Source of the DNA: an uncultured delta proteobacterium
GTDB taxonomy: Bacteria > Desulfobacterota > Binatia > UTPRO1
DNA length: 64,000 nt
Reading direction: 5' to 3'
Assembly: GCA_963753325.1 (NCBI GenBank)
Contig: CAVWBS010000001.1
Coordinates: 1,835,945-1,899,944, forward strand
The number at the start of each line of letters is the position of its first letter. Position 1 is the first letter of the stretch. The notes beneath the pieces are model-generated. The model ran no database searches, had not been told where the DNA came from, and saw only the letters and a list, made by a program, of their open reading frames with translations. This document shows, one piece after another, positions 740 through 58,320 of this stretch. The translations under genes were made by a program, and so were the position numbers.

Positions 740-1837
740 ATGGGTCGCAGCCGCGCGATCGTCCAGGAGGGGCCGCGGGCGCTCGTCGAGCGCACGCTGG
801 CGCTCCCCGACATCGACGACGACAGCGCGCTCCTGCAGGTCGAGGCATGCGGCATCTGCGGCAGCGACGCCGAGCAGTACGCCGGGCTCCTGCCGGTGCC
901 GTTCCCGGTGATCCCGGGCCACGAGCCGCTCGGCACGATCGCGCGCATCGGCGATCGCGCCGCCGCGCGCTGGGGCGTCGACGTCGGCGACCGCGTCGCC
1001 GTCGAGGCCCCCATCCCGTGCGGTCGCTGCCGGGTGTGCCTCGCCGGGCGCTATCCGATGTGTCGCGCGCGTGGCAGGTTCTTCGCCCACGGCTACGTAC
1101 CGCTCGCGCAACCGCCGGGCCTGTGGGGCGGCTATGCCGAGTATCTCTACCTCGATCCGTGCTCGCTCGTGCACCGCGTACGCGCCGACGTGCCCGCGGC
1201 GGTCGCGGTGATGTTCAACCCGCTCGGCGCCGGCTTCCGCTGGGCGGTCGACATCCCCGACACCGGCCCCGGCGACACGGTGCTCGTGCTCGGTCCCGGT
1301 CAGCGCGGCATCGCCTGCGTCATCGCGGCGCGCGCCGCGGGCGCCGACACGATCATCGTCACCGGCCTCACGCGCGACGCCGCGAAGCTCGCGCTCGCAC
1401 GCCGCTTCGGCGCCGATCACGTCATCGACGTCGAGCAGGAGGACGTCCGCCGTCGCGTCAAGGAGCTGACCGACGGACGCGGGGCCGACGTCGTCATCGA
1501 GGTGTCGGCGAACGCGCCCGAGCCGGTCGCCGAGGCGCTGCACTACGTGGCGCCCGGCGGACGCATCGTCCTCGCGGGCGTGAAGGGCTTCCGCAGCGTG
1601 CCCGGCTTCGTGAGCGACCTGATCGTGATGAAGGAGGCGCGCATCCTCGGAGCGTTCGGGGTCACCAGCCCTGCGTATGCGTCCGCCATCCGTCTCATCG
1701 AGTCGGGCCGCCTGCCGCTCGCCGACCTCCACACGCACGACTTCCCGCTCGCCGAGACCGAGCGCGCCATCCAGATCCTCGCCGGCGAAGTCGCCGGGGA
1801 AACATGCGTCCACGCGTGCATCTTTCCGCAACGCTGA
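740..1837 (+). CDS. Zinc-dependent alcohol dehydrogenase (MDR superfamily)
   Basis: 365-aa ORF with catalytic-zinc motifs GICGSD and GHEPLG, a structural-zinc Cys cluster CGRCRVCLAG, and a nucleotide-binding VLGPGQRG. Confidence 0.85.
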   Translation: MGRSRAIVQEGPRALVERTLALPDIDDDSALLQVEACGICGSDAEQYAGLLPVPFPVIPGHEPLGTIARIGDRAAARWGVDVGDRVAVEAPIPCGRCRVCLAGRYPMCRARGRFFAHGYVPLAQPPGLWGGYAEYLYLDPCSLVHRVRADVPAAVAVMFNPLGAGFRWAVDIPDTGPGDTVLVLGPGQRGIACVIAARAAGADTIIVTGLTRDAAKLALARRFGADHVIDVEQEDVRRRVKELTDGRGADVVIEVSANAPEPVAEALHYVAPGGRIVLAGVKGFRSVPGFVSDLIVMKEARILGAFGVTSPAYASAIRLIESGRLPLADLHTHDFPLAETERAIQILAGEVAGETCVHACIFPQR

Positions 1838-1887
1838 TGCGCGGCGGCCCGCCGGCGCGCACGCGCTAGTCCGACCTGTCGGCGATC

Positions 1888-4800
1888 TTGACTCACCGCC
1901 GCGACGAGACGAAGGTCGTCGTCGTGCACTGCGTCACCTGTCAGGAGACGTTGATCCCCGGGAAGCCGTTCTGCGCCAACTGCGGCAGCGCCGTGGCGCC
2001 CGCCTGCCCCAACTGCGGCGCCGCCCTCGACGCGCGCTTCCGCTTCTGTCCGAGTTGCGGCACGCCGCTCGCGGCCGACGAGCGCCTGCAACGCCTGGCG
2101 CAGCACATCCCGGACGATCTCGCACGGAAGCTGCGCGCCGCACCTCCGCCCGCCCTGGAGGAGCGCAAGCTCGTGACCATCCTCTTCTGCGATCTCGTCG
2201 GCTCGACGGCGATCGCCGAGGGCCTCGATCCCGAGGAGTATCGCGACCTCATCGAGGAATACATGGCCCTGGCGTTCCGCGAGATCTACGCGCTGGAAGG
2301 CGTCGTGAACACGCTGGCCGGCGACGGGCTGATGGCGCTGTTCGGCGCGCCGATCGCGCACGAGGACGCTCCGCACCGCGCGGTGCGTGCCGCCCTCGCG
2401 ATCCGCGACGCCCTGGCGGCGTTCAACGCCGGGCGGCGGCCGGGCTCGCTCGAGCTGCAGGTGCGGATCGGCATCCACACCGGCCCGGTGGTCGTCGGCA
2501 CCGTCGGGAACGACCTGAAGATGGACTACACGGCAATCGGCGACACCACCAATCTCGCCGCGCGCCTGCAGACCGCGGCGCGGCCCGGCGCGATCCTCGT
2601 CAGCCACGCCACGCACCGGCTGGTGCGCGACGCGTTCGTCAGCGAGGTCGCCGGAACGTTCGAGGTGAAGGGGCGGCGCGAGGCGGTCGTCGCCTACGAG
2701 ATCCGCGCCGCCAGCCACGACGCGACGCCCATGGCGATCGCGGAGGCCCGCGGCCTGACGCCGTTCGTCGGCCGAGGCCGCGAGCTCGCTACGCTCGCGG
2801 CCTGCTGGCAGGAGGTGCTGAACGGGCGTCCGCAGATGATCGCGATCGCCGGCCCCGCGGGGAGCGGGAAATCGCGCCTCATCTACGAGCTGAAGCAACG
2901 GATGGGAACCGAGCGCATCGCCTATTTCGAGGCGCGCTGCGCCGCGCTCACCCAGGGCATCCCCTACGCGCCCATGACGAACATGTTGCGCCAGTACTTC
3001 GGCCTCGTCACCGGCGAGCCCATGGAACACGCCTGCCACAAGATCGTCGCGCAGCTCTCCGAGCTCGCCGACGCGCCGGCGACCTTGCATCAGCACCTCT
3101 GTCGCCTCCTCTCCGTCCACGACGATCCGACCGGCGACAGCGTGCCGCCGGAGGAGCAGCGCCAGCAGACCTACGAGGCGGTCGCCAAGCTGGTGCGGCT
3201 CACCAGCCAGCGCCGGCCCGTGATGATGATCCTCGAGGATCTGCACTGGATGGACGACGCCTCGCGCGAGATGGTCGCGCTCGCGGCGGCGAACATCCAC
3301 GACGAGCGCCTCGCGTTGGTCGTGAGCCACCGGCCCGACTTCGAGCCGACCTGGCGCAACAGCCCTGCCCTCACCCGCGTACGCCTCGGCACGCTCGGCG
3401 ACGACGACGTGCAGGCCATCATGCGCGCCGTCGCCGGCGGTCGGCTGCCGCACGCGCTCGAGGAGCGCATCCTCGGGCGCGCGGAAGGCAACCCGTTCTT
3501 CGCCGAGGAGATCACGCGCGCGCTGGTCGACGACGGCTACCTGCTGCGCGGTGACGGCCACATCCGGCTCACGCGCCCCGTCGCCGAGATCGGCATCCCC
3601 GATACCGTGCAGGAGCTGATCGGCGCGCGGCTCGACCGCCTCGGCCCCCACGCCAAGCGGGTGGCGCAGGTGGCGGCGGTCCTCGGGCGGCAGTTCCATC
3701 GCGGCCAGCTCGCGCAGCTGCTCGCCAGCGAAGGCATCGACGTCGGCCGCGAGCTCGAACGTCTCGAGCGCCGCGGGATCGTGCACCGGAAACAGGTGCG
3801 CACACCCGACGAGTACCGCTTCGGGGAGAGCCTGGTGCAAGAGGTCGCGTACGAGGCGCTGCTCCTCAAGGAGCGACGGCAGCTGCACGAACGCATCGGT
3901 CTGCTGCTCGAGCGCGACGGCGCCGACCGCGATCCGGAGCGCGTCGCGCTGCTGGCGCATCATTTTGCGCGCAGCGACAACCGCCGGAAGGCGATCGAGG
4001 CGCTCCTCCGCGCGGCGCATCGCGCCGAGGCGCTGCCCTCGTATGCCGCGGCCGCAGCCTTCTATCGCCAGGCCTGGGAGCTGGCCGATGCCGCCCTCGC
4101 GGAGAGCAACGGCACCGATACCGAGCTGAAGCACGCGGTCGTGAGCGCCACATTCGGCCTGGTGCGCATCACGGTCCTCTACGGGCCGTCGCACACCGAC
4201 GAAGCCGAGCGCGCGGCGCAACGCGGGCGGGCCCTCGCCGAGGAGATCAGCAACGTCGAGACGCTCGCCGGGCTCTATACGTTTCACGGCCTGGCGCTCA
4301 CCGGCGACGATCGCGAACGGTTTGCGCAGGGGCTGGCGCTCGTCGAGGAAGGCCTCGTCCTGGCGCAGCGCGCGGGCCTGGAGCTCGCGGCGACCAGCAT
4401 CTCGCGCGGGCTCGCCTGGACCTATGCCCTCGATGGGCAGCTCGAGCTCGCGCGCCGCACCATCGACTGGGTGGTGCAGGATCTCGACGTCCGCGGCGAG
4501 CGGGCGCGCGCGACCGACGTGTACTTCGGCGCCCGCTGGGTCCGCGAGGGCATCCTCTACATCAGCGACGATCTGGCGACGGCGGCGGCGAGCGCGCGCG
4601 AGACCCACGAGCTCGCGCTGCACGCGCCCAACCGGACGGCGCAGAGCAGCACGGCGGCGACGCTGGCGCAGGTCTTTTTCGAGCAGACCGACTACGCCGA
4701 GGCCAAGCGCTGGGCGGATCGCAGCCTCGAGATCGCGCAGTCGATCGGCAGCCTCGCCGGCATCCGCATCGCCTCGGCCGTCGCCCTCGCGGCACGCCTC

Positions 4801-5289
4801 GAGCTCGGCGAGCCGACCAACGTCGGGGCGTACGTCGAGGCCATCGAGGAAGGCCTCGCGCAGAGCGGCAGCCTGCCCCTCAACAGCCGTCTCGTCATCG
4901 AATCGCTGCTGATGGCCGGCGAGGTCGCCCGGGCGCGCCGCGTCGCCGAGCTGACGCACGGACGCGGGGGCGGCCGCCTGCGCGAGGTGATCCGCTCCGT
5001 GGCGCGGGGCGACGTGCTGCTGCGCCTCGGCACGGCCCACTGGGTCGAGGCCGAGCGCTGGTACGGGCCAGCGCTGGCGCAGGCGCAGGTGCTCGGCGCC
5101 GCCTCGACCGAGGCCGCGGCGCTCCTCGGTCTGGCCGAGATCGCGCTCCGGCGCGGCGAGCGCGATACGGCGGCCCGTCAGCTCGATCTCGCGCTCGCGC
5201 GCTGCCGCGACCGCGACCTGCGGCGCACGCAGCGGCGCGCCGAGCGTCTGCTGGCCGAGGTCAGCGCCGAGACGAAGCGTCTCGCGTGA
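1888..5289 (+). CDS. Multidomain signalling protein: double zinc ribbon + class III adenylate/guanylate cyclase + AAA/STAND ATPase + TPR-like helical repeats
   Basis: Intact 1133-aa ORF (TTG start from the ORF track; exact start uncertain). It has N-terminal CxxC pairs (CVTCQ..CANCG..CPNCG..CPSCG), cyclase motifs LFCDLVGST and GIHTGPVVVGTVG, Walker A GPAGSGKS, and a long Ala/Leu-rich helical C-terminus. Confidence 0.85.
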   Translation: MTHRRDETKVVVVHCVTCQETLIPGKPFCANCGSAVAPACPNCGAALDARFRFCPSCGTPLAADERLQRLAQHIPDDLARKLRAAPPPALEERKLVTILFCDLVGSTAIAEGLDPEEYRDLIEEYMALAFREIYALEGVVNTLAGDGLMALFGAPIAHEDAPHRAVRAALAIRDALAAFNAGRRPGSLELQVRIGIHTGPVVVGTVGNDLKMDYTAIGDTTNLAARLQTAARPGAILVSHATHRLVRDAFVSEVAGTFEVKGRREAVVAYEIRAASHDATPMAIAEARGLTPFVGRGRELATLAACWQEVLNGRPQMIAIAGPAGSGKSRLIYELKQRMGTERIAYFEARCAALTQGIPYAPMTNMLRQYFGLVTGEPMEHACHKIVAQLSELADAPATLHQHLCRLLSVHDDPTGDSVPPEEQRQQTYEAVAKLVRLTSQRRPVMMILEDLHWMDDASREMVALAAANIHDERLALVVSHRPDFEPTWRNSPALTRVRLGTLGDDDVQAIMRAVAGGRLPHALEERILGRAEGNPFFAEEITRALVDDGYLLRGDGHIRLTRPVAEIGIPDTVQELIGARLDRLGPHAKRVAQVAAVLGRQFHRGQLAQLLASEGIDVGRELERLERRGIVHRKQVRTPDEYRFGESLVQEVAYEALLLKERRQLHERIGLLLERDGADRDPERVALLAHHFARSDNRRKAIEALLRAAHRAEALPSYAAAAAFYRQAWELADAALAESNGTDTELKHAVVSATFGLVRITVLYGPSHTDEAERAAQRGRALAEEISNVETLAGLYTFHGLALTGDDRERFAQGLALVEEGLVLAQRAGLELAATSISRGLAWTYALDGQLELARRTIDWVVQDLDVRGERARATDVYFGARWVREGILYISDDLATAAASARETHELALHAPNRTAQSSTAATLAQVFFEQTDYAEAKRWADRSLEIAQSIGSLAGIRIASAVALAARLELGEPTNVGAYVEAIEEGLAQSGSLPLNSRLVIESLLMAGEVARARRVAELTHGRGGGRLREVIRSVARGDVLLRLGTAHWVEAERWYGPALAQAQVLGAASTEAAALLGLAEIALRRGERDTAARQLDLALARCRDRDLRRTQRRAERLLAEVSAETKRLA

Positions 5290-5381
5290 GCGGGTGACGC
5301 GGCCGCACGCGGGCAGCACCGCGGCCCTGTTGCAGCACCGCGGCCCTTGATCCGCCCACGCCTCTCCAGCTAGGGCGAGCC

Positions 5382-7979
5382 ATGCCGTTCGACCCGGCGT
5401 CGGGAGCCTACGTCGACATGCGGGTGGCCCGCGGCTTTCCCCTCGGCGGCATGGGGAGCGGCGGGATCGCCCTCAACACCGACGGGAGCTTCGGCGAGCT
5501 GCGCCTGAACAACAACTGGATGTGCCCGATCCGCGGCCCCGCCGGGAGCTTCCACGCGTGCTTCGCTGAGCGCGATGGGGCGCCGAGCGAGACCGTGCTG
5601 CTGCGCATGGCCCCGGGCGCGGACGTCCCCGGCGCACCGGCCTGGCGCGAGTACGAGGGCGTCCGCCACGTGCGCTCGACCACGTTCGTCGGCACGCTCC
5701 CGACGTTCCGTCTGCGCTACGACGATACGCTGCCCGTCGAGCGTCACGCTCGACGGGTTCACCCCGCACGTCCCCCACGACGTCCGCGCCTCGACGCTGC
5801 CGGCCGCCGTCTTTCGCTTCCGTCTCGAGAATCCCGGCGACGATCCGGTCGATGCGGCGCTGCTCTTTTCGTTCGAGAACGTCCTCGGACGCGGCGGCAC
5901 CGGCCATCTCGGCGTCGAGCTCGGTGCCGACGACGTGCTCCGCGCCGTGCGCGCACCGCGCGTGTACGACGACATCGGCGGCAACCACCAGCTGAGGGTC
6001 GAGACCGCGGGCCGCCGCGGCGTCCGCTTCCGCACCGCTCAGCACCATGGCCCGCGCTCGCACCGCGCCGGCGTGACGGGTGAATACCTGATGCTCGTCG
6101 AGCCCGACGCCGACCTCGAGGTGACCGTCTGCGAGGAGTGGGATGCCGCCGCCCCGCGGGCGAGCGTCCTCGACGAGTTCGCGCGCGACGGACGCGTCCG
6201 CTCGCATCCGACCGGCGGCGCGGCCGGCGGCTCCCCGTCGCCCCGCCGCGGCGATCGCGGCCCGCATGACGCTCGCGCCGGGCGCCGACGCGTGAGATCG
6301 TCTTCGTGCTGGCCTGGTGGACGGCCGACCACGTGACCGGGCCGGCACCCGTGGGCCCGCAACCGACGGGATCCGCCGTCGACCGACGCCGGGCCGCGCG
6401 AGGGCACGTGGCGTCGGCCACGTCTACGCCACGTATTTCGCGACCTCGACGCGCTGCGGCGTACGTGCTCGACGAGCGCCGGCAGCTCGAGGAGCGACTC
6501 GACCGAGGTGGTCGCGGCTGCTGCGACGCCTCGATCGCTGCCGCCCTGGCTGGTGCGCGCGCTCGCGAACTCGATCGACGCGGTGCTGTGCAACTCGGTC
6601 GTCCCGGCGAGCGGCCGGCTGTACACGATCGAGGGCGTCGACTGGCGCTGGCCGATGGGCGGCCTCACCGGCACGAACGACCAACGGCTCGCCGCGCACC
6701 CTATCTGGCGACGTTCTTCACCGAGCTGAACCTCACCGAGCTCGACGAGTTCCGCCGCCTGCGGCGACGAGCGCGGCGCGATCCCGCACGGCAACGGCAA
6801 CTGCGACCTCGGCCTCGGCACGACCGACGTGCCCTACGGCTGGCCGATCGTCCATCAAGGGACTTCCTGCCGGCGAAGGAATGGACCGATCTCACGATGT
6901 CGCTGGTCGCTGCAGGTCTGCAAGCTGTGGCGCCGTACCGGCCGCCAGGACGTGCTCGAGCGCTTCTGGCCGGACGCTGTGCGCGGCATGGAGTACCTGC
7001 GCGCGATCGCGCCGCGCGGCGTTCCCGAGGGCGGCACCACCTTCGACGTCTGGGAGCTTGCCGGGCGTGTTCGCCTACACGCGCGACGCTCTACCTCGCG
7101 AGCCTGCGCGATGATGGCCGACATGGCCGGGCGATCGAGCCCGCGAGCGCGCCGCAGCCTATCAATCGCGCTCGCCACCTGCGCCGGCGCGCTCGAGGAC
7201 GAGCTGTGGGACGAGCGCGGCTTCTATCGCACCAGCCGCCGACGCACGACACGATGTTCACCGCGCGCTCGCCGGCGACTGGCTCGCGCGCTACGCCGGG
7301 GCGGACCCGGTGCCGATCCGGTCCGGGCCGCGAGCCATCTGCGCCACCCGCGCACCAGCGCGCGTCGCTGGTGACGCGGCGGTCGCGGCGCGCAGGGCCG
7401 CTACCGCGCGCTGCCGCGCGCCGAGGCGCACTTCGACGGCACCGAGGTGCGTGAACCGGCGATGGGGCCGGGCTGCCGCCGGCGAGGAGATGACCTACGT
7501 CTGGCAGGTGCTATCCCTACCAGGCCAGCGCTGCAGATCCAGGTCGGGCAGGTCGACGCAGGCGCTGCGCACGCATGCAGTTGATCTACGATCGTCTGTG
7601 GCGCGATGGCAACGCGTGGAGCGGCGGGCCTGCGCGGCAACGACGAGTCCATCTACATGACGCATCCGGCGGTGTGGGCGGTGCTGCAGCGCGTTCACCG
7701 GAGCCGCGCTCGACGTGCCCGCGCGGACGCTCGTCGTCTGGCCACGCTCGGCGGGCGAGATCGCGCGGCTGCGCTGCCCGTTCTTCTTTCCCCGCTGTGG
7801 GCGATGCTCGACTACGATCCCGGCAACGGCACGATCGCAGATCGAGGTCGTCCGTCACGTTCGGCACGCCGGTGACGATCGACCACGTCGCGCTGCGCGG
7901 CGCCTCGGGAGCGCTGCGCCGCATCACCATCCCGGAGACGGAGCTGGCCGAGGGCTGGAGCCTCGAGCTGACGCTCTGA
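5382..7979 (+). pseudogene. GH116-type beta-glucosidase (GBA2/glucosylceramidase-like), interrupted by many frameshifts
   Basis: The N-terminal GFPLGGMGSGGIALNTDGSFGELRLNNN matches the GH116 N-domain. Later family-like segments continue in different frames, in ORFs 5575.., 6306.., 6317.., 6508.. (LPPWLVRALANSIDAVLCNS...YTIEGVDWRWPMGGLTG), 6829.. and 7575..7979. Confidence 0.7.
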
Positions 7980-46969: not shown

Positions 46970-47680
46970 ATGCGGATAGGCAGGAGAGTACTGTGGACGG
47001 TGGCCGGCGCCTTCGCGCTCGCGCTGGCGACGCCTGCGGCCGGCCGCTGTGAGCATGCCTCGCTCACGCTGTACGGGGGCCTGTTCGGCAACAAGGAGTA
47101 CGTGGAGGGATGGGAGGGTGTCCAGGGCGCGATCGGCGTGCACGAGTACGTCTCGCTCCTGGCGCGCATCACCGGCGTGCACATCCTCGATTCCGATCGC
47201 TTCCACGAGGGCGACTCCGGTATCGGCGAGGGCGGCCTCGGCTTCCACGTCGCCCCGAACACGATGGTCGCCGTCCTCGGTGGCAGCTACTTCGGCGACA
47301 TCTTCGATCCGATCATCGAAGGCGACTTCAGCACCGCACAGCTCATCGGCGATCGGTGGATCTACCTGCAGGTCACCGGCGTCTACGGCTTCGACAGCAC
47401 CCGATGGCAGAACTCGATCTACCTCAGCACCCCGATCTCCGATCCGGCCAAGGACGTCGTCCTGTTCGGCGGCGTCGAGAGCTACCTCTACAACGAGGGC
47501 CAGCTTCGTCGTGACGGAGACTTCGTGCGCAATCCTGATCACGGTGACGTGAAGGTCCAGGTGGGGCCCGCCCTCAGCGTCTACAAACGCTCCTGGGACG
47601 CGGGCCTGAAGGTCGGAGTCGGCGGCGGGGACTACGGCGTGTACGGAACGATGTCGGTCTTCAAGACCTTCACCCTGTAG
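46970..47680 (+). CDS. Secreted protein, possible small outer-membrane beta-barrel
   Basis: Signal peptide MRIGRRVLWTVAGAFALALATPAAG. Gly/Tyr-rich alternating-hydrophobic strands occur throughout (VKVQVGPALSVY, AGLKVGVGGGDYGVYGTMSVFKTFTL), with an aromatic residue near the C-terminus. No family was recognised. Confidence 0.5.
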   Translation: MRIGRRVLWTVAGAFALALATPAAGRCEHASLTLYGGLFGNKEYVEGWEGVQGAIGVHEYVSLLARITGVHILDSDRFHEGDSGIGEGGLGFHVAPNTMVAVLGGSYFGDIFDPIIEGDFSTAQLIGDRWIYLQVTGVYGFDSTRWQNSIYLSTPISDPAKDVVLFGGVESYLYNEGQLRRDGDFVRNPDHGDVKVQVGPALSVYKRSWDAGLKVGVGGGDYGVYGTMSVFKTFTL

Positions 47681-47709
47681 CCGGCACACACCAGAACGAG
47701 GAGAATCGC

Positions 47710-48453
47710 ATGAAGACCGCAGCACGGATGGCAGTTCTCGGCGTGACGCTGGCCATGCTCAGCCTGCCCGCGACCGGCCACGCCTACGACCATAGCCGCT
47801 ATCGCTCGCAGAAGTTCGCCAACCTGCGCCGCCCGGTGTCCTCGACCGAGCAGTTCCTGCGCCTGCTCGACGCGCACAAGCTGAACGCGACGATCGACGA
47901 CTACGCCGAGGCGCTCTACCGGGGCGGCTGGATCGATCATCAGGATCCGCAGGAGGCGCGCCGCTTCCTCGGCACGCTGGTCGCCCGCCCGAGTCAGGAT
48001 ACGGAGGAGTACCGGACCTGGCGCATCCTGCGGGAACGCCACGGCCACGGCCACATCCTCGACAACGACTGGCACCGCCAGCTGCACGAGGGCGAGACGG
48101 GATTCTTCGACCCGCAGACGGGGCATCTGGTCGTCCTGTCCGACTGCGGCAATCCCGTCGAGGCACCGGCGAAGGTGCCTCCACCGCCACCACCCGCGAA
48201 GGAGGCGCCGCCTCCGCCGCCTGCGCCGGCGAACCCCTTCCCCGACAACGTCGGACGCGTGGTTCCATTCTTCAACGCCCCTGCGGCGCCACCGGCGCCA
48301 CCACCGCCACCGCCACCTCCGCCGCCGCCACCACCTCCGCCGCCGCCACCGCCTCCTCCTCCGCCACCGCCACCGCCTCCTCCACCGCCGCCACCGCCTC
48401 CGCCACCGCCACCGCCACCGCCGCCGCCGATGCGTCCCGGCATGATCGACTGA
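47710..48453 (+). CDS. Secreted protein with a C-terminal 44-residue polyproline tract
   Basis: SD GAGGAG lies before ATG 47710, followed by signal peptide MKTAARMAVLGVTLAMLSLPATGHA. A ~130-aa globular region is followed by Pro-rich blocks (PPPPPPAKEAPPPPPAP) and then 44 consecutive Pro codons and MRPGMID*. Two hairpins follow the stop. Confidence 0.75.
   Translation: MKTAARMAVLGVTLAMLSLPATGHAYDHSRYRSQKFANLRRPVSSTEQFLRLLDAHKLNATIDDYAEALYRGGWIDHQDPQEARRFLGTLVARPSQDTEEYRTWRILRERHGHGHILDNDWHRQLHEGETGFFDPQTGHLVVLSDCGNPVEAPAKVPPPPPPAKEAPPPPPAPANPFPDNVGRVVPFFNAPAAPPAPPPPPPPPPPPPPPPPPPPPPPPPPPPPPPPPPPPPPPPPPPPPMRPGMID
48298..48429 (+). repeat. 44 consecutive CCN codons (mixed CCA/CCG/CCT)
   Basis: Counted codon by codon in the frame of ATG 47710: 1+20+20+3 Pro codons with no interruption. 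Confidence 0.95.
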
Positions 48454-48495
48454 TCACACGACGGGGCCGTGGGAACCTCCCGCGGCCCCGTTTCC

Positions 48496-48532
48496 GGTCG
48501 TGACTCGGCAACCGAGTCGCGACCCGTTTTTT
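48496..48532 (+). terminator. Rho-independent terminator
   Basis: GGTCGTGACTCGG-caa-CCGAGTCGCGACC (13-bp stem with one G-U), followed by cgTTTTTT. A second hairpin, ACGGGGCCG/CGGCCCCGT, lies just upstream at 48461-48491. Confidence 0.7.
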
Positions 48533-48582
48533 CGTTACCGGTGGCTTCGCAAACGACGCCCCGGTAGGCTCGACGGTTTCCC

Positions 48583-49971
48583 ATGGGAGCCGCCGAACAT
48601 CGCCGCGACCACCCGGGCCGCGCCGAGCTGCGGGAGCTGATCCGCCTGGCGGCGCCGGTCGCCGCCGCCGAGCTCGGGTGGATGGCGATGTGGCTCGTCG
48701 ACATCATGCTCGTCGGACGGGTGAGCGCGGAGGCCATCGGCGCCGTCAGCGTCGGTGGCAACGTCTTCTTCACGGTCGCGATCTTCGGCATGGGCCTGCT
48801 GCTCGGCCTGGACTACGCCGTCGCCCATGCGGCCGGCGCGGGGCACCGCGACGCCGTGCACCGCACGCTCGTCGACGGCCTGCAGCTCGCCGTCGTCGCC
48901 ACGGTGGTCCTGACGGTCGTGGCGCTGGCGCTCCGGCCGCTTTTCGGATGGGCGGGTGTGCGCCCCGCCGTGGCCGCGCAGGCGGTTCCGTTCTACGAGG
49001 CGATGATCTGGAGCCTGTTCCCGCTGCTCGTCTTCTCGGCGCTGCGCCGCTATCTGCAGGCCCTCGGCCGGGTGCTGCCGGTGATGCTCGCCGTGCTGAC
49101 CGCCAACGTGGTCAACGCCGCGGCCGGGTGGATCTTCATCTTCGGGCATCTCGGCGCTCCGGCGCTCGGGGCGACGGGCGCCGGTTGGGCCACCATGGCG
49201 TCGCGATGCTACGAGGCGCTCGCGCTGGTCGCGTACGTCATCGTGGAGGAGCGGCACCACCCGACGGGTCTGTGGCGGGTCTCGCTGCGACCGCGATTGC
49301 CGCAGCTCGTGCGCCTGATCCGCCTGGGCGTTCCCGCGGCCACGCAGCTCACCCTGGAGGTGGGCGTCGTGGCGACCGCGACGACGTTGGCGGCGACGCT
49401 CGATGCCGCCGCCCTCGCCGCCCACCAGGTCGCCCTCGGCATCGTCTCCGTCAGCTTCATGATACCGCTCGGCGTCGCCTCGGCCGCCGCGGTACGCGTG
49501 GGCCGCGCGCTCGGCGAGCGCGACCTCGCGGCGGCGCGCCGCGCCGGCTGGACGGCGCTCGGCGTCGCGACGCTCGTCATGCTGGCCTCGGGCCTGACGT
49601 TCCTTGTCGCGCCGCGCCCGATCCTCCGCTTGTTCACGGACGACGCCACGGTGATCGCAACGGGCGTCGTCCTCCTGCGCGTCGCCGCCGCCTTCCAGCT
49701 CTTCGACGGCGTGCAGGTCGTCGCCACGGGCGTCCTGCGCGGCACCGGTGACACGCGGACCCCCATGCTCGCGAATCTCGCCGGGCACTGGCTCCTCGGG
49801 CTGCCCGTCGGCGCCCTCCTCTGCTTCCGCGCCGGGCTCGGGGTGATCGGCCTCTGGCTCGGCCTGAGCGTCGGCCTGATCGTGGTGGCGCTCACGCTCC
49901 TGCGGGTGTGGTCGCGCCGGCTCGTCACCGCGGCGGACCGCGGGCCGGCCGCGTCAGCCCTACCCGCCTGA
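48583..49971 (+). CDS. MATE family efflux transporter
   Basis: 462 aa with about 12 hydrophobic segments. The N-terminus ELIRLAAPVAAAELGWMAMWLVDIMLVGRVSAEAIGAVSVG is typical of MATE/NorM-like proteins. Confidence 0.85.
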   Translation: MGAAEHRRDHPGRAELRELIRLAAPVAAAELGWMAMWLVDIMLVGRVSAEAIGAVSVGGNVFFTVAIFGMGLLLGLDYAVAHAAGAGHRDAVHRTLVDGLQLAVVATVVLTVVALALRPLFGWAGVRPAVAAQAVPFYEAMIWSLFPLLVFSALRRYLQALGRVLPVMLAVLTANVVNAAAGWIFIFGHLGAPALGATGAGWATMASRCYEALALVAYVIVEERHHPTGLWRVSLRPRLPQLVRLIRLGVPAATQLTLEVGVVATATTLAATLDAAALAAHQVALGIVSVSFMIPLGVASAAAVRVGRALGERDLAAARRAGWTALGVATLVMLASGLTFLVAPRPILRLFTDDATVIATGVVLLRVAAAFQLFDGVQVVATGVLRGTGDTRTPMLANLAGHWLLGLPVGALLCFRAGLGVIGLWLGLSVGLIVVALTLLRVWSRRLVTAADRGPAASALPA

Positions 49972-50100: not shown

Positions 50101-50796
50101 GTGCGCGTGCTCGACGTCACGACGTCGCTGCTCGCCACCGCGGCGCGTCTCGGTTACGGCGAGCGGGTCGGTCAGGTGGGCAGGCAGCCGGAGAAGCTGC
50201 TCGAACTCTACGAGTTCGAGGCCTGCCCCTACTGCCGGAAGGTGCGCGAGGCGCTCACCGTTCTCGACCTCGAGGCGATGATCTATCCCTGCCCGAAAGG
50301 CAGCCCGCGGTTTCGCGACGTCGTCCGCAAGCGCGGCGGCAAGGAGCAGTTCCCGTACCTCGTGGATCCGAACACCGGCGTCGCGATGTACGAGTCGGAC
50401 GACATCAACCGGTATCTCTTCGAGCGTTACGGCAGCGGCGGGGTACCGCTGATGCTCTCCGCCGGACCGCTCACGCTCGCGGGCTCCATTGCCGCATCGG
50501 GCATGCGCTTCGGCCACGGCGAGCGGCACCGTCCCGCCCGCGCGCCCGAGCAGCCGCTCGCGCTCTACAGTTACGAGGGCTCGCCGTTTTGTCGTCTTGT
50601 CCGCGAGGTGCTCTGCGAGCTCGCGCTCCCATACCACCTCCGCAACGTCGCACGCGGAAGCTCTCGCCGTGCGGCATTCACCGCCCGCGCGGGCAAGATG
50701 ATGGTGCCGTACCTCATCGACCCGAACCGCAGCGTCGCGATGTTCGAGTCGGCGGACATCATCGCGTATCTGCGGCGTACGTACGCGATGACCTGA
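50101..50796 (+). CDS. Tandem glutaredoxin-like / GST N-terminal domain protein
   Basis: Two thioredoxin-fold repeats: LELYEFEACPYCRKVREAL...FPYLVDPN and LALYSYEGSPFCRLVREVL...VPYLIDPN. Confidence 0.7.
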   Translation: MRVLDVTTSLLATAARLGYGERVGQVGRQPEKLLELYEFEACPYCRKVREALTVLDLEAMIYPCPKGSPRFRDVVRKRGGKEQFPYLVDPNTGVAMYESDDINRYLFERYGSGGVPLMLSAGPLTLAGSIAASGMRFGHGERHRPARAPEQPLALYSYEGSPFCRLVREVLCELALPYHLRNVARGSSRRAAFTARAGKMMVPYLIDPNRSVAMFESADIIAYLRRTYAMT

Positions 50797-55580: not shown

Positions 55581-55992
55581 GGCCACCCAGCAATGCGGCG
55601 CTCGTGCACCTGGCCGCGCGCTGGGAATGTACACGTAGACGGCGTTGTCGACGCCGTGCTCCTCGGCGTAGTGACGCGTCCGCCTCCGATGACGAGCACC
55701 TGCGTCTCGCGGTGGTCCATATCAAGTAGAACTACCTACGCCAGCGCGCTTCTTCGAACGTGCGCTCAGCGGTAGTGGTTGGTGCGCTTTCGCGCAACGA
55801 CGGCTTGCCGATGCGATGCTTCGTATTCGGCAGATCGAACTGCTCCGTTGCGGCGCAACAAATCAGCGTACTCGTTCGCGCTCGACGATATTTTTTCTTG
55901 ATGTTGTCTCACCGACCTGCGAGACGCGGGAGAGCAGCGTATAGGCCATAGCGCATAGCAGTTCACGCAGGGTCCCGCTTTTGGAGGTCGAT

Positions 55993-58320
55993 ATGCCCAC
56001 CCATTTCACCGATCGGTGCGTCCACGTTCGTTCGCTTCGCGTCGCGGTCCTCGCGTTGGCGACGCTCTTCGTCATGCTCGCTCCCGCGCGATCCCGCGCA
56101 GCGAGCCCAACCTTCTTCCAGGGATTCGAGGTGGACACCTCGGGTTGGTTTCCCGGAGACGGCACCGCGAACCGCGAAGCGGACGGCTACGTCTCCCCGG
56201 TCCCCTACGCGAGCGGCATCACGTCGTCGGCAGGGACGCATCACGCGCGACTCCGGCGCGCGACGTGTGACACCGAGATCGCCGGCGGAGGGCCGACGGT
56301 CTTCTGCCAAGGCGCCTTCACGCGCTGGGGCGGCTACAACAAGGACTGGACGGGCGGCTACACGACGCAGGTCGACGTCTACTTCGATGTCGCGTATGCG
56401 ATCGCCCATCCGGACTCGTACGGCGGCAACATCGCCTGCCTCACGGCGGATCCGAGCGATACCTCGTGCCCCGGCACCCGCTTCGACTTCTCTTCGGCGA
56501 TCAACGACTCGACCGGCAACTTCCTGAGCGACTTCGTCTTCAATGTGGGGACCGGACCGGACGGCCCGCCGACCTGCCCCGGCGGACAGGGCTTCGTCAT
56601 GACTGCGAGCACCAACGCGTTTCGGAGCGGCGCGAATCCCTACAATCCGGGCAAGGATCCATTCTGCATCAGCACGTCCGGTTGGTACACCCTGCGACAC
56701 ACCTTCAAGGACGTCGGCGGGTTTCTGGTCGTCGACATGGACCTCATGCAGGGCAACGCCATCGTGCACCACTGGTCGATCACAACCACGAACGCCATCG
56801 CGAGCGTCGGCTGCAACCGCTACGGCTGGTTCGCCAACGAAGAGATCTGGGACCTCGCGATCGACAATAGCCAGATGACGGGCTGCGGCGTCGAGGTCAC
56901 GCAATGCAGCCTCGACGGCTGGGAGCTCGTCAACTTCGACGCTACTACGAGCGCGGACGTGGGCGATGCCACGACCACGTCGGGCACCGACGCGAACTTC
57001 GTCTCCGGCCCCGGCGCGCCGCCGCTCGGAACCGGCAGCATGCAGCAGGTCATCGGCACCAACGGCGACGACGCGACGCGCCTGCGAACCGGCAACTGCA
57101 ACGGCACCCTGCTCACCGACGTGATCAGCCTCCCCCTCACCTACTGGACGTACGTCACCACCAACATGGGCGCGCAGGCAACCTACCTCCAGCTGCGCGT
57201 CGACCAAGACGGGGACGGCACGACCGACGACCGGCTGTTCTTCGAGCCGGCCTATCAGAACGGCGGCTACGGCATGATCACCGGCCCGCCGGTCCCGGAC
57301 CAGTGCCCGCTCGATCCCGTCAATTGCGTCGTGCTCAACACCTGGCAGTTCTGGGACGCGCGAATCGGCGGCTGGTGGTCGGACAACGAGAGCGCGGGCG
57401 GTCCGCCGCTGATCACGCTGGCGGACTACGCGGCCGAGCACCCGGGCGTCAAGGTCGCCACGGATAACCCCTCCCTGCGGGTGCAGGCGGGCGGCGGCGC
57501 CGGCGCATGGGACAACTTCAATGGCGCGACCGACGATCTGACGGCCTGCGGGACGACGTACAATTTCGAGCAAGGCGTGTGCCCGACCGCGACGCCGGCC
57601 GCGACGCCGGGGCCGACGGCAACGATGACAGCGCCAATCCCGTCACCCACGTCGACGCCGGTTCCGCTCGACCACGTCCAGTGCTACCAGATGCCTCGCG
57701 AGCCCTTCACGCGGCTCTCGGGCGTGAGCCTTGCCGACCATTTCGGACCCAGCACGGTCGACGTGATCCGGCCGAAGCGCTTGTGCAATCCCGCCGACAA
57801 GAACGACGAGAATCCGAACGCACCCAACGATCCGGATCATTTGACCGGCTACATCATCAAGCAGCGTACGCCCTTCCCCCGCGCGAGCGGCGTGTCGGTG
57901 ACGAACCAGTTCGGGACGGTGACGATGGACCTGCGGCGGGCCGACTATCTGCTGGTACCCACCGCGAAGAGCCTGAGCGTAGCGCCGCCCCCACTGACGC
58001 CGCCGACGATCGATCACTTCAAGTGCTACAAGGTCGCCCGGGCGAAGGCACGGATCGCGGGAATCAAGGTCGACGACGAGTTCGGCACCGTCGTCGAGGA
58101 CATCAAGCGGCCGATGCGGCTGTGCATCCCGGCCGACAAGAATGGCGAGGGCATCCCGGATCCGACGAGCGACAGTCTGCTCTGCTACAAGATGCGTCAG
58201 ACCAGCCAGCCGTTCTTCCGCGGCGTCGATCCAATCTTTATCAACAATCAGTTCGGCGCGAGCACCATATCCGTCGATCACCTCCGCGAACTCTGCGTTC
58301 CCTCGAGCGTAGTGTACTGA
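55993..58320 (+). CDS. Large secreted protein with four C-terminal DHxxCY...FG...LCxPxxK repeats
   Basis: GGAGG lies 5 nt before ATG 55993, followed by signal peptide ...VAVLALATLFVMLAPARSRAAS. A ~520-aa N-terminal region is followed by a Pro/Thr linker (CPTATPAATPGPTATMTAPIPSPTSTPVP) and four ~45-50-aa repeats. No family was recognised. Confidence 0.7.
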   Translation: MPTHFTDRCVHVRSLRVAVLALATLFVMLAPARSRAASPTFFQGFEVDTSGWFPGDGTANREADGYVSPVPYASGITSSAGTHHARLRRATCDTEIAGGGPTVFCQGAFTRWGGYNKDWTGGYTTQVDVYFDVAYAIAHPDSYGGNIACLTADPSDTSCPGTRFDFSSAINDSTGNFLSDFVFNVGTGPDGPPTCPGGQGFVMTASTNAFRSGANPYNPGKDPFCISTSGWYTLRHTFKDVGGFLVVDMDLMQGNAIVHHWSITTTNAIASVGCNRYGWFANEEIWDLAIDNSQMTGCGVEVTQCSLDGWELVNFDATTSADVGDATTTSGTDANFVSGPGAPPLGTGSMQQVIGTNGDDATRLRTGNCNGTLLTDVISLPLTYWTYVTTNMGAQATYLQLRVDQDGDGTTDDRLFFEPAYQNGGYGMITGPPVPDQCPLDPVNCVVLNTWQFWDARIGGWWSDNESAGGPPLITLADYAAEHPGVKVATDNPSLRVQAGGGAGAWDNFNGATDDLTACGTTYNFEQGVCPTATPAATPGPTATMTAPIPSPTSTPVPLDHVQCYQMPREPFTRLSGVSLADHFGPSTVDVIRPKRLCNPADKNDENPNAPNDPDHLTGYIIKQRTPFPRASGVSVTNQFGTVTMDLRRADYLLVPTAKSLSVAPPPLTPPTIDHFKCYKVARAKARIAGIKVDDEFGTVVEDIKRPMRLCIPADKNGEGIPDPTSDSLLCYKMRQTSQPFFRGVDPIFINNQFGASTISVDHLRELCVPSSVVY

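Follow-up and report, generated by a model that had tools for sequence, protein, structure and literature searches.

A conserved run of consecutive prolines in a predicted exported protein of uncultured Binatota, encoded next to a predicted outer-membrane barrel

The Pro-rich region of TonB is described as adopting an extended polyproline II (PPII) structure whose length suffices to cross the periplasm (Kohler et al. 2010, as cited in PMC12204202). As presented in that source, the Pro-rich PPII segment of TonB (domain II), and likewise that of the Pro-rich TolA, gives reach between a globular domain and an outer-membrane barrel partner (PMC12204202). Runs of consecutive Pro residues are obstacles to translation, as they stall ribosomes and require elongation factor P (EF-P; Ude 2013 and Doerfel 2013, as cited in PMC12992588; PMC12856214). 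The longest natural Pro run of Bacillus subtilis has four residues and a recent review terms a 20-Pro reporter tract ‘artificially long’ (PMC12856214), while 91% of the polyproline motifs of Escherichia coli are triplets (PMC4218817). Here we analyse a gene that codes for 44 consecutive prolines in a soil bacterium of the uncultured phylum Binatota. The gene lies in a stretch of 64,000 nucleotides (64 kb) of contig CAVWBS010000001.1, hereafter called the window. It codes for a predicted exported protein and directly follows the gene of a small predicted outer-membrane barrel. The features of this locus are as follows, in window positions and with the basis of each assignment in brackets.

46970..47680, + strand: partner barrel gene, 236 residues, with a signal peptide, product ending in ...FKTFTL (AlphaFold2, Foldseek)
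47698..47703, + strand: Shine-Dalgarno-like GAGGAG, 6 nt upstream of the ATG (read from the sequence)
47710..48453, + strand: polyproline protein gene, 247 residues plus stop (list of open reading frames, translation)
47710..47784, + strand: predicted signal peptide, residues 1-25, MKTAARMAVLGVTLAMLSLPATGHA (sequence features; conserved junction ...A/YD or A/FD in the orthologues, the slash marking the cut)
47785..48153, + strand: predicted globular N-domain, residues ~26-148 (AlphaFold2, alignment)
48154..48297, + strand: Pro-rich linker, residues 149-196, 48 residues (ten-orthologue alignment)
48298..48429, + strand: 44-codon Pro tract, residues 197-240 (scrambled CCG/CCA/CCT mosaic without CCC)
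48430..48453, + strand: C-terminal tail MRPGMID plus stop (translation, orthologue comparison)
48460..48534, + strand: two tandem perfect hairpins, one of 15 bp and then one of 13 bp with a T-run after it (intrinsic terminator)

The initial annotation of this DNA had read 44 uninterrupted Pro codons in the plus frame opened by this ATG, and direct translation gives exactly these 44 residues. The good Shine-Dalgarno sequence that it mentioned corresponds to the GAGGAG motif. The signal peptide that it named is also supported: judged from its sequence, the N-terminus has the features of a Sec signal peptide, with an AXA-type site that is probably cleaved before YDH. The shorter Pro blocks ahead of the run (P6 at residues 157-162, P5 at 167-171 and PP at 194-195) and the seven-residue tail behind it were also found as described. 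The tract comprises 22 CCG, 14 CCA, 8 CCT and no CCC codons, with at most four identical codons in a row. Tandem Repeats Finder detected only imperfect periodicity in it, with 74% matches at a period of 6 nt and 78% at 21 nt. Thus, the earlier description of the tract as a mosaic of short units is fair, but the repeat is not perfect. Ahead of the Pro-rich region, the three codon positions of the open reading frame (ORF) have GC contents of 0.70, 0.44 and 0.90, respectively, as is typical of coding DNA in this window of 70.8% GC. Over all six frames of the window, the Pro tract, together with its antisense poly-Gly reading, is the sole amino-acid homopolymer of 10 residues or more. Runs of 8-9 Arg residues are present in various frames (13046 and 34201, and 15770, 29778 and 50930 on the minus strand), which probably represent off-frame readings of GC-rich coding DNA.

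We searched for homologues using the N-terminal 156 residues as a query, which avoids low-complexity matches. Matches were limited to four of 5.8 billion proteins and six of 1.84 billion cluster representatives, and thus the family is rare. At the DNA level, the search yielded three loci in metagenome-assembled genomes (MAGs), two of them Candidatus Binatia and one bearing an older ‘Deltaproteobacteria’ label, and nine metagenome loci. Full-length tracts were retrieved from DNA loci via the neighbouring barrel gene and tblastn-based scans. Ten complete loci were obtained from independent assemblies, namely the window and nine others from Candidatus Binatia and unbinned metagenome contigs. As far as seen, the family is restricted to Binatota or Binatia-type genomes. 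The complete orthologues are 226 to 253 residues long and have the same architecture. Their longest Pro runs number 44 residues in the window, 42 in L008, 41 in L010, 48 in L006 and L019, 45 in L011, 51 in L017, 49 in L145 and 31 in L020; in L007, 29 prolines are followed by a Gln and then by 14 prolines. The comparison of tract lengths among homologues, a check named in the initial annotation, thus finds 31-51 Pro at the same position in the ten complete loci. The contigs that carry three of the complete orthologues measure 1.07 Mb, 344 kb and 260 kb, and a database protein identical to the window barrel (P0005) is recorded on a 2.92-Mb contig. With ten independent complete orthologues of the same architecture, some of them on contigs of this size, the tract is not an assembly artefact, and the mis-assembly that had been envisaged is unlikely.

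The protein searches returned no full-length, long-tract orthologue, although genes are called on the contigs concerned (e.g. L017, positions 4804-5565). Matches in the protein databases were short, truncated or chimeric versions only, and surveys of protein collections may under-count proteins with extreme homopolymers. In one contig (L016, positions 906-4097), the first 60 residues of a polyproline family protein run in frame into an ORF of 1063 residues that resembles a TonB-dependent receptor by eye. The contig is probably chimeric, although the fusion might be genuine.

The N-domains of the orthologues share between 91% and 46% identity with that of the window, with differences at four-fold sites of up to 0.67. 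Over this divergence, a single position of 394 within the tracts is not a Pro, all ten complete tracts are in frame, and eight of the ten are 41-51 residues long. Their codons depart strongly from background usage. The confidently coding ORFs of the window use CCG, CCC, CCA and CCT for 63, 31, 4 and 1.4% of their prolines, respectively, and given this usage the chance of finding no CCC among the 44 codons is 7e-8. The tracts of nine complete orthologues, when pooled, comprise 193 CCG, 112 CCA, 80 CCT and 8 CCC codons (8/393 or 2% for CCC), and the tenth, L145, has the same codon bias. CCA and CCT together thus rise from a background of ~5.5% to 49% in the tracts. The lack of CCC keeps C homopolymers short, the longest one in the window tract being 3 nt as against ~11 nt expected under background codon usage. 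Similarly, the longest runs of identical codons across the tracts number 2 to 5, when ~7 are expected. The depletion of CCC agrees with the reported selection against the frameshift-prone CCC-C, and Pro codon choice in EF-P-dependent motifs has been reported to be under selection (PMC8129111, PMC12856214).

The order of the codons is poorly conserved. Between the window and L008, 0.67 of the aligned codons are shared, compared with 0.54±0.06 for a shuffled null, while the flanking four-fold sites are 84% identical. All other orthologue pairs are at the shuffled null, and the tract of L010 is largely (CCG CCA)n. The tract DNA is probably reshuffled quickly by small slippage or indel events. As codon order is close to shuffled while Pro identity and length are kept, selection appears to act on the protein and not on the DNA sequence. 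The lack of long perfect repeats, the near-absence of CCC, the conservation of the frame and the clustering of eight out of ten tracts at 41-51 residues argue for stabilising selection rather than contingency variation. Judged from these comparisons, the tract is a real, conserved and selectively maintained coding homopolymer.

In all of the loci retrieved, the polyproline gene is immediately preceded by the barrel gene, at a distance of ~30 nt. In the window the spacer is 29 nt long and contains the Shine-Dalgarno sequence. The genes further upstream vary (nitroreductase, methyltransferase, FtsH or MetH), and so does the downstream gene, which codes for a MATE transporter, a Na/H exchanger, a B12-binding protein on the opposite strand or a TP_0789-like protein. 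A terminator scan of the window placed an intrinsic terminator at 48496-48524, followed by CGTTTTTTCG. The double hairpin has a predicted RNA folding energy of -56.7 kcal/mol (z = -6.7), and its first hairpin is kept in L008 and L010. With a barrel gene adjoining it on one side and a terminator right after its stop codon, the polyproline gene appears to form a two-gene unit with the barrel gene.

Modelled by AlphaFold2 with 33 homologues, the partner protein shows 12 strands, with a predicted local distance difference test score (pLDDT) of 84.3 and a predicted template modelling score (pTM) of 0.74. Foldseek searches of the PDB with this model retrieved FapF, the beta-domains of the autotransporters EspP, Hbp and EstA, the invasin beta-domain, a COG4313 channel, PcoB, OmpG and Tsx, at query-normalised template modelling (TM) scores of ~0.45-0.6 and 8-14% identity. 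For the EspP, Hbp, EstA and invasin barrels, the Foldseek probability was 1.0 and the query-normalised TM scores were 0.42-0.51. Distant barrel homologues end with ...WKTFSF, a C-terminus of the outer-membrane protein type. The partner is thus predicted to be a 12-stranded outer-membrane beta-barrel. Of the 42 positions that are invariant in the small barrel (alignment A3), 20 are Gly, including a GGGDYGVYG motif near the C-terminus, and these Gly-rich positions might reflect a wide or unobstructed lumen. In one MAG (L006, positions 3958-4634; VBKW01, DP_19), tblastn found the barrel gene as two overlapping pieces corresponding to residues 1-123 and 126-236, which suggests a frameshift by assembly error or a pseudogene. 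Neither the polyproline protein nor the barrel nor any of the 17 family members matched a Pfam or NCBIfam model.

For the N-domain of the polyproline protein, AlphaFold2 predicts a five-stranded sheet together with three helices, and the pLDDT of the core reaches ~87-97. Cys146 and Asn148, in a DCGNPV motif, are invariant. We considered a disulphide between the polyproline protein and the N-terminal Cys of the barrel protein, and rejected it because that Cys is missing from the distant barrel homologues. The linker is modelled at low pLDDT (~46-57), and the NPFP (175-178) and GRxVPFF (182-188) motifs in it are conserved in the ten-orthologue alignment. The tails that follow the tract read M-x-P-G-x-[IL]-[DE] in close orthologues and RRLPFD, NPGTC, ICT or MCI in distant ones; MPPGHID and (M)HPG... 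are also among the tails observed.

A profile search identified a sister family that shares the N-domain at 33-37% identity (E-values down to 1e-56). Its members (P0047, P0050 and P0052-P0061), one of them annotated by NCBI as Candidatus Binatia, are encoded with a signal peptide or an N-terminal hydrophobic segment. They have Pro-rich tails of mixed Pro, Ala, Glu and Val that end with ...EPVSRSxP and contain no homopolymer. No Pfam or NCBIfam model matched this family either. In two independent loci (L023:5001-10678 and L024:5001-10822), the sister gene is found directly upstream of a gene for an EpsL/BBP2_2-type barrel of 410 residues, and Wza-like Poly_export, Wzz/GNVR, tyrosine-kinase-like ATPase and Wzy_C genes follow in this order. 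The sister family and the window gene thus have in common the N-domain, a Pro-rich C-terminal extension and an adjoining outer-membrane barrel gene. However, the sister gene precedes its barrel gene, while the polyproline gene follows its own. The two barrels appear to be unrelated in sequence (hhalign probability of 0.07%), and the 236-residue barrel has no Pfam or NCBIfam match to EpsL/BBP2_2 (PF10082, TIGR03014). As both branches adjoin barrel genes, the domain seems to have been paired repeatedly with outer-membrane barrels. The homopolymer itself appears to be a specialisation of one branch of the family. These analyses define two candidate uncharacterised protein families, namely the N-domain and the 236-residue barrel, and a third, related one in polysaccharide-export loci.

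Of the described systems, TonB may be the closest functional analogue. The Pro segment of the window protein has the length to reach across part of the periplasm: the 44-Pro run alone would measure 13.6 nm in PPII conformation and is preceded by the 48-residue linker. TonB differs, however, by its N-terminal helix anchor in the inner membrane, its Pro-X repeats (EP/KP), its C-terminal TonB_C domain and its functioning with ExbBD. The window protein harbours instead a predicted cleavable signal peptide, an unrelated N-terminal globular domain and a pure Pro run that ends the protein. It has no match to the TonB models PF03544 and PF16031 in Pfam at E<=0.1, nor to any in NCBIfam, and no exbBD genes were found in the conserved neighbourhood of the recovered loci. 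For threading of a polypeptide through a barrel, the closest structural analogy may be with type V autotransporters, the inverse autotransporters intimin and invasin, and FapF. The partner shares with them a predicted 12-stranded barrel, and its best matches hold or pass an extended polypeptide in their pore. In contrast with type V systems, the barrel and the putative ‘passenger’ are encoded by separate ORFs with a 29-nt spacer and not as one polypeptide, and the window barrel is predicted to have no pore-spanning helix, POTRA, LysM or periplasmic domain. No Pfam model of autotransporter or intimin barrels matched either protein. Both likenesses are analogies, and the tests that we ran speak against membership of either class. 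With proteins known to depend on EF-P (CadC, EnvZ, ValRS), the window protein has in common its consecutive prolines, at 44 well beyond the usual threshold of at least three. The motifs of those proteins are only 2-5 Pro long compared with 31-51 in the present family, which is in addition enriched in CCT codons.

Based on these features, we propose that the tract is a PPII rod that serves as a fixed-length envelope spacer coupled to the barrel, a reading to which we give a probability of about 0.5. The polyproline protein would be exported by the Sec pathway and made from a two-gene unit together with the small 12-stranded barrel. At 0.31 nm per residue, its 44 prolines would form a stiff rod of ~13.6 nm (9.6-15.8 nm over the family). 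This agrees with the rod of 13-14 nm put forward in the initial annotation, for which the PPII conformation is the natural structural reading. The rod and the linker together would make up a spacer or tether in the cell envelope that fixes the spacing between the globular N-domain and the barrel. The rod might serve as a strut in the periplasm, beneath the outer membrane. Alternatively, it might thread through the barrel pore and display the N-domain outside. The resemblance of the predicted barrel to pore-holding and pore-passing barrels (autotransporter, invasin, FapF) is counted in favour of the coupling. The scrambled codons, almost free of CCC, would avoid long C/G homopolymers, pure (CCG)n and frameshift-prone CCC-C, and a run written in this way could be copied and translated without loss of frame, presumably assisted by EF-P. 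The parts of this proposal that we infer are export, the PPII conformation, the role as a spacer, contact with the barrel, the topology and the dependence on EF-P. In a bolder version, the two proteins would constitute an undescribed split type-V-like device for surface display or tethering, with a PPII rod in a minimal 12-stranded pore and the N-domain projected or retained at a genetically set distance of ~10-16 nm. In this case, the EF-P or auxiliary machinery of Binatota would have to be of unusual capacity, so as to polymerise >50 Pro. We regard this version as speculative and rather doubtful.

Several observations weigh against a fixed-length spacer. The tract length is not strictly fixed, as it ranges from 31 to 51 residues, and two contigs carry a variant with only 10 Pro. 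The latter (L001:5380-5532 and L002:1840-1975) is a 91%-identical orthologue in which the 10 prolines are followed by APERGL, a stop codon and a terminator-like hairpin of its own. We dropped its interpretation as a contraction of the tract because it shares no homology with the remaining loci beyond the 3' end of the tract. The variant is ambiguous: it may be a genuine allele, shortened or rearranged, or the product of chimeric joining within the low-complexity DNA. Outer-membrane barrels are ~3-4 nm high, and a 13.6-nm rod far exceeds this, so threading alone does not account for its length. Long polyproline is in addition only semi-rigid, since occasional cis bonds kink it. The N-domain has no significant fold match in the PDB (best Foldseek E-value of 0.57) and no sequence-profile match. 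With no PDB or family match, no function can be transferred to it. Lastly, the enrichment of CCT in the tracts is opposite to the avoidance of CCU-C published for E. coli (PMC8129111). Thus, the codon pattern does not purely reflect avoidance of translational frameshifts. At the DNA level, keeping clear of C/G homopolymers and of pure (CCG)n is probably at least as important.

The run might alternatively serve as a translational brake or sensor, at which ribosome stalling would make the output of this protein, or of a gene next to it, report on EF-P activity, prolyl-tRNA supply or the pulling force of the Sec translocon, as in the tuning of CadC or in the arrest peptides SecM, VemP and ApdA. 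Consecutive prolines do stall ribosomes, and the combination of a signal peptide with a stall element at the extreme C-terminus is that of ApdA and ApdP (PMC12992588); the tail of the window protein also contains R-P-G. Nevertheless, we consider this role unlikely. The C-terminal RAPP/RAGP-like core of the ApdA/ApdP class requires an essential Arg (PMC12992588), and this residue is not conserved among the orthologues, which have His, Pro or Asn instead or no such tail. SecM and the other arrest peptides are encoded upstream of, and co-transcribed with, the gene that they regulate, whereas the polyproline gene is followed by the double-hairpin terminator and by a gene that is not conserved between loci. 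As few prolines suffice for stalling, it is hard to explain why 31-51 of them would be kept across deep divergence, and the removal of frameshift-prone CCC suggests that the full product is wanted. It is less probable still that the run is a ligand that docks a PPII-recognising partner, be it a bacterial SH3-like domain, a profilin-, EVH1- or WW-like domain of a eukaryotic prey or host, or a polysaccharide. Polyproline is a classical ligand of PPII-binding domains, for instance in formin FH1 and ActA, and both the occurrence of the sister family in exopolysaccharide export loci and the conserved aromatic-Pro motifs before the tract (NPFP, VPFF) are consistent with docking. However, ligand motifs normally number 6-12 residues and not 40-50, no gene for a PPII-binding domain is conserved near the locus, and the Binatia, known only from environmental metagenomes, have no known host.

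Equally improbable is a hypermutable locus, in which a slippage-prone repeat would vary in length within populations and diversify a surface-exposed protein, so that the present length would have no meaning. Lengths do vary among the orthologues, down to the 10-Pro variant, the codon order scrambles between close relatives faster than the flanking synonymous sites, and the (CCG CCA)n of L010 suggests recent slippage by 6 nt. Moreover, many short-read contigs stop inside the tract (L005, L012, L013, L021 and L022). On the other hand, contig breaks are expected at any low-complexity stretch, and the 10-Pro variant, having lost its 3' homology, may be chimeric or rearranged. Imperfect mosaic DNA, with 74-78% repeat matches and at most five identical codons in a row, is the opposite of slippage-favouring DNA, and eight of the ten complete tracts have remained at 41-51 residues despite deep divergence. 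Phase-variation loci switch expression by means of a perfect repeat, but changes by 3-nt units cannot switch this gene on or off, and the codon unit keeps the frame in all ten orthologues. The variable length foreseen in the initial annotation thus holds among relatives (31-51), but not as a free-running hypervariable repeat. A mere artefact of assembly or of frame, finally, is very improbable and largely refuted. Low-complexity DNA is hard to assemble, and L003 and L004 are visibly chimeric just past the tract; assemblers clearly struggle there, but the complete versions agree, with ten independent in-frame tracts and conserved flanks. The antisense poly-Gly ORF (47994-48791, minus strand) is open for 265 residues in the window and shares its high-GC third positions with the Pro frame. 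GC content at third positions is hence uninformative between the two frames, and we used the conservation of ORF boundaries instead. From stop to stop, the antisense frame varies between 65 and 295 residues among the orthologues, with no conservation of its ends, and the window version extends into the MATE gene in antisense orientation. In contrast, the plus frame has a Shine-Dalgarno sequence, a predicted signal peptide and a confidently predicted conserved domain. This excludes expression of the poly-Gly strand, which the initial annotation had named as grounds for refutation.

The reading of the tract as a spacer rod would make the locus an undescribed two-gene envelope module, in which the Pro-rich spacer of envelope proteins is taken to its homopolymeric extreme. 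It would represent a natural polyproline ‘ruler’ in the cell envelope, paired with a minimal outer-membrane barrel, in a phylum of which no cultured representatives are known to us. If made as encoded, the run ranks, to our knowledge and within the literature searched, with the longest natural polyproline runs reported as conserved in a family of bacterial proteins. It might thus provide a natural substrate to establish how far EF-P and helper factors can carry the ribosome. Avoidance of CCC together with codon scrambling might likewise be a natural design rule for stable repetitive genes. The partner barrel gene, the family-wide conservation and the codon bias had not been mentioned in the initial annotation.

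Proline tracts of this size were also found in viral sequences. We scanned the viral contigs of IMG/VR for (CCN)30, a search that gives no bacterial frequency, and found at least 119 stretches, of which 113 among the matches listed are mosaic and similarly poor in CCC. More than 100 contigs classified as viral (L026-L144) harbour mosaic (CCN) tracts of 30-89 units with hardly any CCC, e.g. L115:4377, L112:7568, L050:288, L065 and L031. Some of these tracts are true polyproline in long ORFs (P40-P69), such as a P69 run in an ORF of 2132 residues, while for many of the DNA matches in high-GC contigs the flanks suggest that the real reading is probably on a different frame or strand. The proteins around the viral tracts do not look like the window protein, and none is paired with a barrel; several are on low-GC or giant-virus contigs. 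Given these viral ORFs, long polyproline tracts are rare but not unique in sequence space. The initial annotation's view that such tracts are exceptional in bacteria is reasonable relative to model organisms, but it does not extend to uniqueness.

In the 64-kb window, we found no promoter-like site, tRNA or Rfam family, and a tblastn search of it with E. coli EF-P gave nothing significant. Downstream of the polyproline gene, a MATE transporter gene (48583-49971) is followed by a gene for a protein of 231 residues with two tandem glutaredoxin/GST_N-type domains (50101-50796). Further away, the window codes for a protein of 1133 residues with zinc-ribbon, adenylate/guanylate cyclase and AAA_16 domains (1888-5289), and for one of 779 residues whose sole match is a DUF7450 repeat (55981-58320).

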